DNA from: Dehalococcoidales bacterium
Lineage (GTDB): Bacteria; Chloroflexota; Dehalococcoidia; Dehalococcoidales; UBA5627
Direction: 5' to 3'
NCBI GenBank assembly: GCA_028706995.1
Contig: JAQTVR010000001.1
Location: 1 to 36,909 of the forward strand
DNA: 36,909 bases
A model generated the notes under the pieces. That model saw nothing but the letters and a program-made list of their open reading frames with translations. It was not told where the DNA came from and searched no databases. This document shows, one piece after another, positions 11,085 through 17,198 of this stretch. How positions within the stretch are numbered: the first letter of the stretch is position 1; every line of letters begins with the position of its first letter. The position numbers and the translations under genes were made by a program.

Positions 11085-11312
11085 ATGCTGATATACGAAA
11101 TCCTATTGAATGAGAAAGAAGAACACGATGGCGAAACTATCACGTTAAATAAGCTAGCTCATTTTCAAAGGGTTAATTATCCTAATGAGCCATTAAGCGT
11201 ACCGAAAGTAAAACCGATTAAGCACACAATCCCGAAAGATTTAGATATAGACGCAATTAACAGGGAAATCAGTAAAGCAGACGACATCAAGACAAGGGGG
11301 AAAGGATGGTAG
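11085..11312 (+). CDS. Hypothetical protein (75 aa)
   Basis: AGGAGAAAG upstream. The ATG is at 11085; the track uses GTG 11082. Confidence 0.45.
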   Translation: MLIYEILLNEKEEHDGETITLNKLAHFQRVNYPNEPLSVPKVKPIKHTIPKDLDIDAINREISKADDIKTRGKGW

Positions 11313-11734
11313 AGTTTTACAGACCGTATCAAGTCAAATATCTACGAGATGATATTATCTGGGTAATCGCCAACGTATTACCGTTGGAGGCTGGGGAGTG
11401 GCCGTCTGAACCTGCTGAAAATTGCGGAGGGCATAAGGTTAATCATTCAGCGCCATTTGAAACTCCGGGTATGATAAGAGCCGAAATAGAATACCGGTTA
11501 AAACTGACAAAGGAAGATGGAGAAACTTTGGTATGGGAAATCCAAGTCGGTCATACGGAAGATTACCGATTCCTCTGCCCGGTTGCTAAGAAAGCACTTA
11601 ATTATATCTGTTCAGGGGTTAAGAGACGCAATCAAACCTATTCCGAATGGTTAAGAGACAGGAAAACAAAGCAAGTAACGAATAAACTTGGCAATTTAGT
11701 GGACATAACGACAAGTAAATGTGTAATTACTTGA
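11306..11734 (+). CDS. 142-aa protein of unknown family; by position a candidate late-gene regulator/antiterminator
   Basis: It is the last gene before a promoter-terminator-leader arrangement. Its stop codon lies inside the TTGACA -35 element. Confidence 0.6.
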   Translation: MVEFYRPYQVKYLRDDIIWVIANVLPLEAGEWPSEPAENCGGHKVNHSAPFETPGMIRAEIEYRLKLTKEDGETLVWEIQVGHTEDYRFLCPVAKKALNYICSGVKRRNQTYSEWLRDRKTKQVTNKLGNLVDITTSKCVIT

Positions 11735-11759
11735 CATTTTAGTCATAAAGTGCTATCTT
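11731..11759 (+). promoter_or_regulatory. Candidate sigma70 promoter (late promoter candidate)
   Basis: TTGACA 11731-11736, 17-nt spacer, TATCTT 11754-11759. An 8-bp inverted repeat follows: TACTTATA 11759-66 / TATAAGTA 11775-82. Confidence 0.45.
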
Positions 11760-11783
11760 ACTTATAGTAAAGTGTATAAGTAT

Positions 11784-11814
11784 GCCTCGACCCCAAAGTC
11801 GAGGCCTTTTTATT
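11784..11814 (+). terminator. Canonical intrinsic terminator about 50 nt downstream of the candidate promoter
   Basis: GCCTCGAC-cccaaa-GTCGAGGC followed by CTTTTTATT. Confidence 0.8.
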
Positions 11815-11815
11815 A

Positions 11816-12440
11816 CGAGCTTAACTACCAAGTGTAGTTGTAGTAACGGCTTACTGAGTGAGTTTTGAGATTGCTGTCCTGCGCTTAATTGACGTATGGA
11901 AGAACTTAATGGTGAGACATTAGCAGCCCACCAGCTCAGTAAGACAGCATATCACCCCCTGAGCCTCTACCTGAAAGGGTTAGTCCTTATGGCAAGCGCA
12001 ACCCACTACAGAATTAACGGTAGCCTCTATAGACGTATAGAGTGGGGGGTTCTTTAGTGGGTAGGACAAATCAGATAAGTCGCAGGTCTCATAAACCTGA
12101 GGAGTCGGGGCGGAACCGACACCCGCAACCAAACTCCAAATTTACGGAGAGAACGAGCAGCGGAGAAGCTCAGGAACCGATGGCGAGAGACGTGATATTG
12201 CGGGTAGTACATCCCTTATCACCTAGTAGTCGGGTGGAAAGACACCTTCCGTAAATTATAAAACCCACTAATTTACTTTCCCCGCTAAAAGTGTAGTAAG
12301 AGTACACTATTTCGTACGATAAAGTGTACGCAACCGGGTGGGTATTTCCTTTTTGGAAACAACCACCGAGAAAAGCTCGGCAGTTCAACTTTTCTAAAAT
12401 ATCGAATAGTTCAAAGTTTGTATCGATTCCCCCGCTCAAT
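11816..12440 (+). ncRNA. Candidate large structured RNA / leader (class unknown; strand assumed from context)
   Basis: About 625 nt with no credible ORF. The core is G+C-enriched and has many nested complementary segments, listed in the findings. Confidence 0.4.
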
Positions 12441-12481
12441 GTTTACAAACTGGTGAAAATCGACCAGTTTAGAGAGGTGTA

Positions 12482-13459
12482 ATGAGTAGATTACCGGAAA
12501 AAGACACGGCAGAATCAGACAATCTAATTAAAACATATTTAACCTGCAACTCTCCTACTGTGGATAAACTGGCTGAGCAATACGGCTACGCAGACAGAAG
12601 AAACTTTACCGATGCGATGAGAAGGCGTTATGGAGCTAGGAGGGAGCGGAATCCTATCAGACAAGAAGCCCCGGAATTAAAAAACAGCTTCATAAAAGGT
12701 ACTGGCAAGGCGTTAGCATTAGACGTTGGCAAGGAATGTAAGGAAATCCTGATTATAAACGATTTGCACATTCCATATCACGACCCGATAACAGTTTCGC
12801 TTGTAATTAAAGTTATTAAAGATTTACAACCTGATTATATTTGTCTGAACGGCGATATAATAGATTTTTACAATATATCAAGGTTCAGCACAGACCCATC
12901 CAGGAGGTTATCGCTCCAAGATGACCTTGATTTAACACGCTGTATATTAAGGGAGATTAAAGAAGCCTCGAATGCCAAAATCTTTATGTGTGCCGGTAAC
13001 CACGAGGACAGACTACGTGCTTATCTCTGGAATAAAGCCCCTGAATTATCCGAGTTAAGGGCATTGGATATTAGACGGCAATTAGGATTAGACATATTCG
13101 GTATTGATTATGCGCCTTATGATTCGATAGTTAAAGTCAATGACATTTTCAAAATCGAACATGGGGATTCGGTTTCTAAGCATTCCGGCTGGACTGCCAA
13201 AGCGATGTACGAAAAGAGGGGCGGTTGTGGGATAGTGGGACATTCCCACCGGTTCGGCTCTCATCTAAAAACAATAGACGATGATACGCAGGGCTGGTAT
13301 GAAAATGCTTGTTTGTGCGACTTAAACCCTGAATACGTGAAAAATCCCAACTGGCAGCAGGGCTTTGCGGTGGTAACTTTTATCAATAAGAGATTTTTCG
13401 TTCAACAAGTACCGATAATCAAACATAAGTTTGTATTCAGGGGTAAATTGTATGAGTGA
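12482..13459 (+). CDS. Calcineurin-like metallophosphoesterase with ~85-aa N-terminal extension
   Basis: Motifs are DLHIPYHD, NGDIIDF, GNHE and VGHSHRFG. GAGAGG SD upstream. Confidence 0.8.
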   Translation: MSRLPEKDTAESDNLIKTYLTCNSPTVDKLAEQYGYADRRNFTDAMRRRYGARRERNPIRQEAPELKNSFIKGTGKALALDVGKECKEILIINDLHIPYHDPITVSLVIKVIKDLQPDYICLNGDIIDFYNISRFSTDPSRRLSLQDDLDLTRCILREIKEASNAKIFMCAGNHEDRLRAYLWNKAPELSELRALDIRRQLGLDIFGIDYAPYDSIVKVNDIFKIEHGDSVSKHSGWTAKAMYEKRGGCGIVGHSHRFGSHLKTIDDDTQGWYENACLCDLNPEYVKNPNWQQGFAVVTFINKRFFVQQVPIIKHKFVFRGKLYE

Positions 13460-13648: not shown

Positions 13649-13840
13649 ATGAGTAACGCAATAGATAATTGGAATGACCCCGAATTCGTAAAGATAATCA
13701 CTTCGGTACAAACTCCCGATGAAATAGAATGTCCGAAATGCGGGATTGTGAAGTTAAAAGATTGCCGAGTAATAAGTACGTCAATGACATATTCAATAAC
13801 CTGCAAATGCGGGGAGCAGTTAGGATTTGAATGTTGGTAA
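13649..13840 (+). CDS. Small zinc-ribbon protein (63 aa)
   Basis: CPKCG ... CKCG motifs. ATG at 13649; the track start is 13637. Confidence 0.45.
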   Translation: MSNAIDNWNDPEFVKIITSVQTPDEIECPKCGIVKLKDCRVISTSMTYSITCKCGEQLGFECW

Positions 13841-14441
13841 CACCTTATTATCAAGACGAATATGTAACGATATACAACGGCGATTGCAGGGAGATATTAC
13901 CTCAATTAGACGTTAAGGTTGATTTAGTATTAACTGACCCACCGTATGGGATAGGAATTGCATCTAATCCTTTTAGACAAAAATTCAGCAAAAGCGATCG
14001 GGATAATAAACCTGTTGATGAGGAGTTATTACAATGGCTTTTGAGTTATGGGGATAATCAAATTATATGGGGTGGTAACTATTTTAATTTACCGCAGAGT
14101 AAATGTTTTTTGTATGGGATAAATTGCAATCGAGAGATTTTAGTTCTGCTATGTGCGAAATGGCTTGGGTTAGTAAGGATATGCCAGCCAAGATTTATAG
14201 AAAATGGGTAGTTAGTTATGACAAATACCATCCCACACAGAAACCAGATGATTTAATGGTATGGTGTTTATCATTCTTCCCTGAAGCTGATTTAATCCTC
14301 GACCCCTTTCTCGGTAGCGGTACAACAGCATTAGCAGCGAAGATATTAAACCGCAAATGTATCGGTATAGAGATAGAGGAAAAGTATTGCGAAATAGCTG
14401 CAAAGAGATGTTGTCAATCTGTAATGAGGCTTGAAGTATAG
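13831..14441 (+). CDS. N6-adenine/N4-cytosine DNA methyltransferase (PF01555-type), split into two frames at a T6 tract
   Basis: Frame 1 carries TDPPYGIG (motif IV) and GGNYFNLP. Frame 0, from 14103, carries VWDK..., HPTQKP and DPFLGSGTT (motif I). The junction is TTTTTTG at 14106-14112. Confidence 0.8.
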
Positions 14442-16008: not shown

Positions 16009-16569
16009 ATGAAAGATAAACTAACACAAAAACAAGAAAATTTCTGCCTCAACGTCTTTCAAGGTATGTCCCAACGAGAGGCTTATATACAGTCCTATAA
16101 ACCTAATTATGCTATAACAACTATTGATGCGAATGCTTCGAGGTTAGCAAGCAATGAAAAGGTTTTAAAGAGATTATCAGAACTCCGTGAGAAGGCACAG
16201 AATACAAAAATAGCCTCTGTAACCGAACGTAAGGAGATATTATCAGAGATAGCAAGGGCTAAGCTAACCGATTATCAAGAATCAGGTATGGATGGTGGCT
16301 GGATTAACATAGGCAAAGAGTCTCCTAATACGGCCTCAATATCAGAGATTGTCTCAACAACCAAATACGATGATAACGGCGCAAACCCTACATTGATAAC
16401 AAGGGTAAGACTACACAATCCCATAGAGGCTATAAAAGAGCTAAACAAGATGGATGGAGTTTACTCGGATAACACCACAGTTGTAAATAACGACAATCGG
16501 CAAATAGTTGTAAATGTGGTTAGTGAAAATGCCAGGCAATTAACGGAACGAATTATCAAGGGGGAATAA
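16009..16569 (+). CDS. terS: Terminase small subunit (Terminase_2/P27-like)
   Basis: LTQKQENFCLNVFQGMSQREAYIQSY...ASRLASNEKVLKRLSELRE, upstream of terL. Confidence 0.85.
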   Translation: MKDKLTQKQENFCLNVFQGMSQREAYIQSYKPNYAITTIDANASRLASNEKVLKRLSELREKAQNTKIASVTERKEILSEIARAKLTDYQESGMDGGWINIGKESPNTASISEIVSTTKYDDNGANPTLITRVRLHNPIEAIKELNKMDGVYSDNTTVVNNDNRQIVVNVVSENARQLTERIIKGE

Positions 16570-17198
16570 TGCCAGAAGTAGGCACTATTAAACACGGTAA
16601 AGAGATAGGCCATAAATGGGACGGTAAATTTATTTGGACTGCCTGCATTGGTTGCGGCAAGGAGCGCTGGGTAGCTTTATTAAAAAATGGAGATACCAAA
16701 ACAAAACGATGTCATTCATGCGCAGCCAAATACTATAAATTGGGCGTTAATACCCGCGGTGTCAATAATGTTAATTGGAAGGGCGGTAGGAGGGTAGACG
16801 CTAAGGGATATATAGCTGTTAAAGTTTATCCTGATGATTTCTTTTACCCAATGGCTACCAGCTGGGGTTATATCCAAGAGCATAGATTAGTTATGGCCAA
16901 ACATTTAGGTCGTTGCTTAAACCGTTTTGAGGTGGTACACCATAAAAACGGCATTAAGTATGACAATAGGATTGAAAATTTGGAATTAAGCACGAACGCG
17001 GCACACATTACAGACCACCATAAGGGTTATAAAGACGGCTACCAGAAGGGGTTGAATGACGGCAGGATTTCTAGAATTAAAAAATTAGAAGAGGAAGTCA
17101 TTGAGTTATCGGGACAAGTAAGATTACTACAATGGCGATTAAATAATGAAATGGGTAACGACATCAATTTACGAGAAGAACGCACAGGCCTATCTTAA
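16569..17198 (+). CDS. HNH endonuclease between terS and terL
   Basis: Motifs CIGCGKERW..CHSC and GYIQEHRLVMAKHLGRCLNRFEVVHHKNGIKYDNRIENLEL, with a C-terminal coiled coil. Confidence 0.85.
   Translation: MPEVGTIKHGKEIGHKWDGKFIWTACIGCGKERWVALLKNGDTKTKRCHSCAAKYYKLGVNTRGVNNVNWKGGRRVDAKGYIAVKVYPDDFFYPMATSWGYIQEHRLVMAKHLGRCLNRFEVVHHKNGIKYDNRIENLELSTNAAHITDHHKGYKDGYQKGLNDGRISRIKKLEEEVIELSGQVRLLQWRLNNEMGNDINLREERTGLS

Follow-up and report, generated by a model that had tools for sequence, protein, structure and literature searches.

Discussion of transfer RNA (tRNA) genes in phages usually centers on codon supply or on the replacement of elongator tRNAs that host nucleases have cut. In lambdoid phages such genes can occupy a particular slot, as with ileZ-argN-argO of 933W, which lie just downstream of the late promoter, and the lambda-type unit itself consists of the Q gene, pR′, a short 6S transcript and tR′. 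Here we describe an element that takes the same position, after a putative late promoter and a terminator, in a contig assigned to a Dehalococcoidales bacterium (JAQTVR010000001.1, from assembly GCA_028706995.1), all 36,909 nucleotides of which were analyzed and are referred to as the window. The element is a 76-nt cloverleaf with the anticodon CAU, located in the 665-nt leader (11816-12480) that lies between the early genes and the late and packaging genes, and its features indicate that it is a previously unrecognized, phage-restricted variant of initiator tRNA.

Ordinary phage tRNAs fold into canonical cloverleaves that ARAGORN detects by default, whereas the family to which this element belongs is missed at default settings and stands just above the threshold of the Rfam tRNA model (RF00005). 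With the bacterial initiator, tRNA-fMet (in E. coli metZ, metW, metV and metY), the family shares the CAU anticodon within a CUCAUAA loop, an acceptor stem of the form NGYGGG/CCCRCN and the A73-CCA end, and the 5′ strand of the initiator T stem, GUCGG, is identical in the window copy. The two differ elsewhere. In the family the D loop reads AAAUYAGRUAA, with a single G and loss of G18, and is closed by a D stem of only 3 bp; the variable loop has 4 nt; the T loop GGCRGAA replaces UUCAAAU, so that T54, Ψ55 and A58 are lost; and position 8 is A rather than U. Two further properties set initiators apart from other tRNAs: they carry A11:U24 where elongators carry Y11:R24, and in E. coli a mismatch at 1:72 disfavors use by EF-Tu. 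The same mismatch, together with pairs 2:71 and 3:70, forms the determinant for the formylase, and published mutagenesis has shown the middle G30:C40 pair of the anticodon stem to be sufficient by itself and essential in E. coli (PMC5389676).

A divergent tRNA(CAU) gene in the late leader

At default settings ARAGORN reports no tRNA at 12056-12131, and with its threshold lowered to 80% it makes one call only, a tRNA-Met(CAT) spanning exactly this interval. RF00005 aligns to 12056-12128 with 31.5 bits (E = 1.8e-5), above the gathering score of 29, when a short stretch is scanned with lax filters; in larger scans the match is lost to the speed filters. A second member of the family, on the fetched locus L154, reaches 35.4 bits with the same model. 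The acceptor stem (Table 1) encloses a D arm GAC-AAAUCAGAUAA-GUC, an anticodon arm CAGGU-CUCAUAA-ACCUG, a variable loop AGGA and a T arm GUCGG-GGCGGAA-CCGAC. No second copy of the element was found in the window, where the next-best match scores 6 bits.

An earlier, sequence-only reading of the leader had proposed that it holds a previously unrecognized structured RNA, a proposal that is borne out by the cloverleaf and fails for one large RNA, as discussed below. Two of the helices that it listed, at 12083-99 and 12104-20, are the anticodon and T arms. It had also reported that no tmRNA or RNase P could be matched; the absence of a tmRNA (transfer-messenger RNA) stands, and a tRNA, which had not been considered, is what RF00005 detects. 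We entertained a tmRNA or permuted tmRNA on account of a TGCGGGT located 70 nt after ACCCGCA-ACCA and rejected it, as the cloverleaf has a full anticodon arm and the downstream arm is missing in relatives. ARAGORN identified no tmRNA by default, and at a 60% threshold it returned only forced calls with implausible, unconserved tags.

Compensatory changes across nine members

Searches with blastn, which recovered L024, and with DNA patterns yielded a family of nine members on distinct contigs (the window, L146, L024, L154, L150, L168, L025, L157 and L159), with G+C contents of 41-58%. Some lie on small siphophage-like contigs, others on three phage contigs that are rich in G+C, on the viral contig L168 (133 kb) and on the metagenome contig L150 (170 kb). 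In the nine-member alignment, 95.6% of cells in the helices are paired, and 12 of the 20 base pairs have changed on both sides, giving 38 compensatory cells. The covariation score is 0.628 as compared with 0.204 in shuffles (none of 500 reaches the observed value), and slid controls show no more than 28-48% pairing. The RNA is assigned to the plus strand because the variants include U:G wobbles. When 185,579 species-representative genomes were scanned with the pattern, no family member came up and the only matches were two due to chance; the CAU family is so far viral or metagenomic only.

The genomic setting of the element varies. It occurs in the late leader in the window, L146, L153 and L024, and in the early or replication region in L025, L157 and L159. 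On the 170-kb contig a Ro60/Rsr gene (TROVE and vWA_Ro60 domains) precedes it on the same strand at a distance of about 255 nt, and RlaP and SpoU methylase genes as well as a tRNA-Asn are found nearby; the Ro60/Rsr gene is followed there by a 670-nt non-coding stretch that carries the element (L150 6085-6756 and 6756-12578, minus strand). On the 133-kb contig it is placed immediately 3′ of an open reading frame (ORF) for the C-terminal domain of IF3 (Pfam 1.9e-23) and about 290 nt from a canonical tRNA-Gly, such that the C-domain-only IF3 stands between tRNA-Gly and the element (L168 4089-4412 and 4393-4465, both minus strand). Including the tRNA-Thr of L153, canonical tRNAs are thus clustered with the element at three loci, and this clustering with tRNA genes and an initiation factor fits a working tRNA gene. 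Also encoded on the 133-kb contig (818-2863, minus strand) is a DruA-like protein whose sequence is split by a LAGLIDADG-containing intein.

An initiator-type signature

As references we used the annotated E. coli genes metZ, metW and metV (initiators), metT, metU and ileX. The CUCAUAA loop is present in all nine family members, including those recovered with a pattern that left the anticodon free. Positions 1 and 72 are unpaired in seven of the nine (A.A, A.C, C.U, U.U and C.A) and form a weak U-A pair in the other two. The 2:71 pair is G:C in eight members, and 3:70 is C:G in five, U:G in three and U:A in one. A11:U24, G30:C40 and A73 are each found in every member.

A covariance model of the family, R1, matches metZ, metW and metV with 51 bits (E = 6e-10), and in the same search at E <= 10 it leaves metT, metU, ileX and the neighboring Gln and Leu tRNAs unmatched. 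The likeness extends to individual nucleotides. The acceptor strands of E. coli metZ, CGCGGGG/CCCCGCA-ACCA, agree with those of L159, CGCGGGC/..CCGCA-ACCA, at positions 1-6 and 67-73, and both begin with a C1xA72 mismatch. G9, G26 and the AGG within the variable loop are common to the family and metZ and do not occur in metT or ileX; likewise, metZ has A11:T24 as the family does, whereas metT and ileX have C11:G24. A non-canonical initiator tRNA of phage origin was not found in the literature that we searched.

A possible role in translation initiation

On balance, and with some reserve, we favor a reading in which a mosaic late-operon leader has as its functional core an initiator-type tRNA(CAU) that is excised, charged with methionine, formylated and used in the P site. 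Late in infection, transcription would continue past the terminator into the leader, and RNase P and a 3′ nuclease would release the tRNA by cutting at its 5′ end and at the encoded CCA, respectively, making CCA addition unnecessary. It would then be charged with methionine and formylated, both of which are to be expected because CAU, A73, G2:C71, Y3:R70, the mismatched 1:72 and A11:U24 are kept. Use in the ribosomal P site would be expected because G30:C40 is kept. The elbow should differ from that of host tRNAs because the D loop, the T loop and position 8 have been replaced by other conserved nucleotides.

The most likely benefit of such an arrangement would be a phage initiator that is handled differently by host factors or nucleases that read the initiator body or A38-C39. 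Initiator tRNA is a target of cleavage by host VapC toxins, and a role in countering tRNA-directed defenses has been proposed for phage tRNAs (PMC10264068). No family member has C at position 39, the residue that directly follows the published VapC cleavage site on its 3′ side. In an extended version of this proposal the element would be a private initiator that is still methionylated, formylated and able to start at AUG, but whose rebuilt elbow alters how it is perceived by host components that inspect the initiator body or A38-C39, namely initiator-directed VapC-type nucleases and the N-domain of IF3, which contacts the elbow. In L168 it would work with a C-domain-only phage IF3, and the whole would amount to a natural, virus-encoded and partly orthogonal initiation system. 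We regard this extension as speculative and on present evidence improbable.

Several observations weigh against a role in initiation. We infer transcription, processing, charging and use in initiation of the element from sequence, and late read-through by antitermination from the layout only. The initiator rule of three G:C pairs at 29:41, 30:40 and 31:39 does not hold in the family, in which only 30:40 is G:C, 29:41 being A:U, U:A or G:C and 31:39 being U:A or C:G. The canonical tertiary core is incomplete as well: U8, G18, T54, Ψ55 and A58 are missing, GGCRGAA stands where canonical T loops have TΨCRANN, the replacements are the same in all members, and A14, C56, R57, G53:C61 and possibly G19 are retained. 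Since the canonical elbow is missing, an L-shape and acceptance by RNase P, methionyl-tRNA synthetase (MetRS), formylase and the ribosome can only be presumed. The minimum free energy (MFE) structure of the precursor context does not recover the cloverleaf. The identity rules applied are those of E. coli rather than of the hosts. Finally, the DNA patterns that recovered most members specified parts of the D, anticodon or T loop, which makes the invariance of those loops partly a product of the search; one pattern without a D-loop requirement and another without an anticodon requirement both gave only the same type.

If the element does act in initiation, the picture of phage tRNAs would widen to that step of translation, through an initiator tRNA that is conserved, restricted to phages and rebuilt at the elbow. 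It would also show, as an experiment of nature, what MetRS, the formylase, IF2/IF3 and the P site require of the initiator body, with the single G30:C40 pair being what selection keeps, and it could provide a scaffold for orthogonal initiation systems. For annotation, the family illustrates that a whole class of viral tRNA genes escapes tRNA finders run at default settings and Rfam scans run with filters.

Alternative explanations for the element

The principal alternative is that the RNA mimics tRNA-fMet outside translation, either as a decoy or sponge for a VapC-type anticodon nuclease, IF3 or the formylase, or as a signal for processing or stability of the late transcript. We consider this possible but not probable. 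The systematic replacement of elbow nucleotides with retention of the anticodon loop and acceptor end is what a mimic of recognition surfaces might be expected to show, and the cleavage of initiator tRNA by VapC, the proposed role of phage tRNAs against such defenses (PMC10264068) and the absence of C at position 39 also speak for this explanation. One member, in addition, adjoins the Rsr/Ro60 and RlaP RNA-repair genes. What a mimic leaves unaccounted for is the retention of features that matter only for charging, formylation and the P site, namely A73, the encoded CCA, the mismatched 1:72, A11:U24 and G30:C40. The element moreover clusters with ordinary tRNA genes, and no nuclease or defense gene is consistently associated with it.

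A second alternative holds that the element is an elongator with a CAU anticodon, either tRNA-Met or a lysidine-modified tRNA-Ile2 that reads AUA, like the ileZ found downstream of Q in lambdoid Stx phages. CAU and the CUCAUAA loop are common to all three classes, the slot past the late promoter resembles the lambdoid tRNA slot, and blastn weakly matches phage genes annotated as tRNA-Met (E = 0.2-0.7). The comparison with E. coli points the other way, as R1 matches the initiators at 51 bits and not metT, metU or ileX, and the 1:72 mismatch and A11:U24 are respectively disfavored by EF-Tu in E. coli and at odds with the Y11:R24 of elongators. We therefore find an elongator unlikely.

Far less probable still is a Y RNA-like partner of Ro60/Rsr. 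The idea derives from the 170-kb contig, in which the element lies shortly downstream of the TROVE and vWA_Ro60 gene on the same strand. YrlA RNAs are tRNA mimics encoded beside rsr in bacteria and phages; they have canonical T and D loops and a GNCGAAN0-1G Rsr-binding motif, and an Rsr-binding stem replaces the anticodon arm (PMC4201824). Both are thus tRNA-derived, non-canonical phage RNAs, and one family member is located beside rsr. They differ in that YrlA has a permuted topology, no anticodon loop and no free CCA end (PMC4201824), whereas in the family the anticodon arm is normal and the ACCA end free, and the canonical T and D loops and the Rsr motif of YrlA are absent. An rsr gene is present at only one of the nine loci and is absent from the window. 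Rfam E-value scans of the window (11600-12600) and of L150 (5900-6900) gave weak matches far below gathering scores and no Y RNA family, and no Y RNA was identified in the 670-nt stretch of L150. The idea was rejected, since topology, motif and loops all fail (PMC4201824).

Similarly remote is the possibility that the element has no function and is either a tRNA pseudogene in decay or a fragment captured from a host: the low scores with standard tRNA tools and the use of the leader as a dumping ground for insertions would be in keeping with it, and against it stand nine members in very different phages (41-58% G+C) that keep four helices through 38 compensatory cells and have identical non-canonical loops, a pattern of compensatory change and loop identity that argues for purifying selection rather than decay.

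The leader as a mosaic of exchangeable modules

The sequence-only reading had presented the leader as a non-coding, densely self-complementary region at the boundary between early and late genes, and it was correct in that the stretch is non-coding, structured above chance and located there. No credible ORF is present: the largest candidates are 53-89 amino acids long, overlap one another on both strands, have no Shine-Dalgarno sequence (SD) and are not conserved, the start of the 53-residue ORF being absent from the closest relatives, L146 and L153. The G+C content of the core (12061-12180), which had been counted as about 53%, is 53.3%, as compared with 45.7% for the leader region and 42.3% for the whole window. 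All nine of the complementary pairs listed are perfect reverse complements and lie exactly where they were placed. Perfect 6-mer inverted pairs at most 120 nt apart number 49, against 17.7 +/- 5.1 in 300 dinucleotide shuffles, none of which reaches 49; this approximately threefold enrichment is the highest among all 665-nt tiles of the window. Folding of the whole region is modestly better than that of shuffled sequences (MFE z of -2.4 on the plus strand and -4.5 on the minus strand, from 20 shuffles per strand), whereas the sub-modules fold in an ordinary manner, with z values of -0.3 to -1.5, none better than shuffles.

What did not survive comparison is the further claim of a single structured RNA of about 625 nt. 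The leader was compared by blastn with all fetched loci. Its closest relatives, L146 and L153, are 94.5% identical over 11954-12131; in both, the terminator is joined directly to the equivalent of 11955, such that 11816-11953 is absent, 12132-12277 is missing as well, and the 12338-12370 hairpin is inverted. Homologs share just 11954-12131 and scattered leader motifs. Conservation is patchy and does not run along the whole length. In most relatives of the upstream gene the leader measures 170-290 nt, in contrast to 665 nt here and about 765 nt in L018. Modules also occur separately: L018 and L023 have the structured module that we designate C and no tRNA, whereas L025, L154, L150 and L168 have the tRNA and no module C. 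Because relatives lack, invert or exchange segments, the comparison indicates that 11816-12480 is an untranslated, mosaic late-operon leader composed of exchangeable structured modules and lineage-specific filler, rather than one RNA (Table 1). One large structured non-coding RNA, for which the enriched inverted repeats, the whole-region folding energies and the G+C-rich core had spoken, is largely refuted by these comparative data, and neither at the gathering score nor at E <= 10 is there a match to GOLLD, ROOL, HEARO, OLE, raiA or the like in Rfam 15; we deem it highly improbable. By the same token, a long phage intergenic leader that appears structured need not be a single large RNA and can instead be a patchwork of small RNA modules open to exchange.

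Table 1. Features of the late leader and its borders, in coordinates of the window
Feature	Position	Strand	Details
Promoter-like site	11731..11768	+	TTGACA, 17 nt, TG-extended TATCTT (consensus scan)
Intrinsic terminator	11784..11814	+	8-bp G+C-rich hairpin followed by CTTTTTATTA; ~25-55 nt past the promoter
Module A	11816..11860	+	Hairpin CTAC-CAAGT-GTAG followed by TGTAGTAACGG
Filler B, lineage-specific	11868..11953	+	Contains 5′ arm of GCTCAG/CTGAGC; not in L146 or L153
Module C, structured, ~97 nt	11954..12050	+	P1 ACCCCC 11954-59 / GGGGGT 12045-50
Divergent initiator-type tRNA(CAU) gene, 76 nt (predicted)	12056..12131	+	Acceptor AGUGGGU/ACCCGCA, A1xA72 mismatch; A73 and encoded CCA
Filler E, lineage-specific, G+C-rich	12132..12277	+	Contains 3′ arm of CCCGCAA/TTGCGGG; not in L146, L153 or L024
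Leader motif TTTCCCCGCTAAAAGTGTA and two small hairpins	12277..12336	+	GTGTA..TACAC, CGTAC..GTACG; direct repeat D3
Near-palindromic 33-nt hairpin	12337..12370	.	GGTGG..CCACC around TTTCC-TTTTT-GGAAA
Conserved 3′ leader	12386..12470	+	Second TTCCCCCGCT motif 12427-12445; hairpin AAACTGG..CCAGTTT 12447-12470 just 5′ of the SD
SD GAGAGG and ATG of metallophosphoesterase gene	12472..12484	+	Gene 12482-13459; PF00149, phrog_221

The individual complementary pairs fare differently when relatives are considered. Covariation supports CAGGT/ACCTG (the anticodon stem), GTCGG/CCGAC (the T stem) and CTCTATA/TATAGAG. In GCTCAG/CTGAGC and in CCCGCAA/TTGCGGG, one of the two arms falls in sequence that the nearest relatives do not have, and CCCACTA/TAGTGGG competes with the acceptor stem of the tRNA and is disrupted in L146.

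Within the P1 helix of module C lie an invariant single-stranded GCGCAACC (11996-12003), a first hairpin (12006-12023, loop AATTAA) and a second one (12025-12042, loop GACG). Copies are found in L146 and L153 (94% identity), L018 and L023, and part of the module is present in L024. Both hairpins covary; in the second, compensatory changes affect four of the seven pairs, and pairing is kept in 96% of cells. P1 covaries too, with CCCCC/GGGGG here and CCCGC/GCGGG in L018, and MFE folding gives the same architecture for the window, L146 and L018. A pattern scan for module C with GCGCAACC..ATAGACGTAT yielded eight loci, all of them chance or unrelated, including the start of an IS110-type transposase. 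Another scan, with GAATTAAC..TAGACGTA, gave at least 120 loci, of which 80 (L026-L105) were checked, for the tRNA-like element only.

Module A is 84% identical to L001-L010 over 11818-11849 and also matches L023, and its stem varies among relatives between CTAC/GTAG and CCAC/GTGG. The two filler segments have no match in any fetched locus, and folding of filler E is unexceptional (z = -1.07). Both may be decayed duplications; in particular, about 12220-12246 of filler E may be a decayed partial copy of the 3′ half of the tRNA, a likeness that is marginal in that 27 of 500 shuffles match it. A more regular scheme, with three tandem units of about 130 nt (11868-12003, 11997-12131 and 12124-12270), was considered and rejected: Tandem Repeats Finder reported nothing and the multiple alignment was poor. 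Pairwise scores of these units are marginal, that of units 2 and 3 being equaled by 27 of 500 shuffles and that of units 1 and 3, which reflects one short repeat, by 2 of 500.

Downstream of the fillers, 12278-12328 is 90% identical to L146, and a similar motif occurs in L024 and L018. The 33-nt hairpin (12338-12370) recurs in L146, L153 and L021 with 100% identity and reversed orientation, and the conserved 3′ leader is 93-96% identical to the same three loci. Four of the six copies of AAGTGTA in the window are located in or near the leader (11770-11776, 11830-11836, 12289-12295 and 12322-12328), all on the plus strand, and TTYCCCCGCT (12277 and 12427) precedes two AAGTGTA copies. These motifs recur in the leaders of L024, L018, L146 and L001 and may be late-promoter or regulator sites.

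Immediately before the SD, the hairpin at 12447-12470 is a hot spot for insertions. In L146 an ORF of about 160 amino acids is inserted inside this hairpin (reverse complement 540-1060), and in L153 the same leader contains an opposite-strand ORF together with the canonical tRNA-Thr (reverse complement 480-940); the ORFs inserted before the metallophosphoesterase gene differ between the two. The metagenome contigs L020, L022 and L024 end just upstream of that gene. A further leader module, common to L017 (3170-3240) and L018 (735-805) and absent from the window, has the form GGGGAAGTGCAGGCTACGATGCGACAATG.TGTGTTCTGGGTAGCGGATAGGCACACCAGCTTCCCC, and its closing helix shows a compensatory change (GGGGAAG/CTTCCCC versus GGGCAAG/CTTGCC).

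Database searches with the leader and its flanks returned little. A blastn search of the leader region against 50,697 phage records gave zero matches, and protein-guided scans of IMG/VR using both flanking genes did not find relatives. Rfam gave nothing relevant for the whole window at the gathering score, nor for 1 kb at E <= 10, where the sole match was asX2 on the terminator. An exact protein look-up of the metallophosphoesterase matched no record.

The upstream unit and the phage

Immediately upstream of the leader, ORF 11306-11734 encodes a protein of 142 amino acids whose homologs (59-67% identity) always represent the last gene before the packaging genes. The promoter-like site (Table 1) overlaps the 3′ end of this ORF, and a second -10-like element, TATAGT, is present in the initially transcribed region. 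A TTGACA promoter is found at the same place after every homolog of the 142-residue gene (L001, L011, L016, L017 and L018), and the site presumably functions as a sigma-70-type promoter. The terminator that the sequence-only reading had placed beyond it was recovered as a hairpin at 11784-11805 followed by a T-run, and a hairpin and T-run occupy the equivalent place in all relatives, giving a transcript of a few tens of nucleotides.

This arrangement, which is kept in all relatives, resembles the Q/pR′/tR′ unit of lambda in that a small gene closes the early region and is followed by a strong promoter, a -10-like element and a terminator, with the late genes behind. It differs in that the 142-residue protein matches no family and has no detectable similarity to any Q family; its AlphaFold model has a pLDDT (predicted local distance difference test) of 47, too low for use. 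The protein is a candidate late-gene regulator.

By gene content, the complete 36.9-kb contig, deposited as part of a Dehalococcoidales metagenome-assembled genome (MAG), is a siphovirus-like phage, with genes for replication, a NinG-like nuclease, the small and large terminase subunits, a portal, a prohead protease and tail proteins. The label 'Dehalococcoidales MAG' may be a binning artifact. An N6/N4 DNA methyltransferase is split over two overlapping ORFs (13831-14211 and 14103-14441), a sign of a frameshift, a pseudogene or faulty assembly. An HNH endonuclease gene (16569-17198) lies between the small and large terminase genes, and a second endonuclease gene, with HNH and AP2 domains, is located near the left end on the opposite strand (557-1054, minus).

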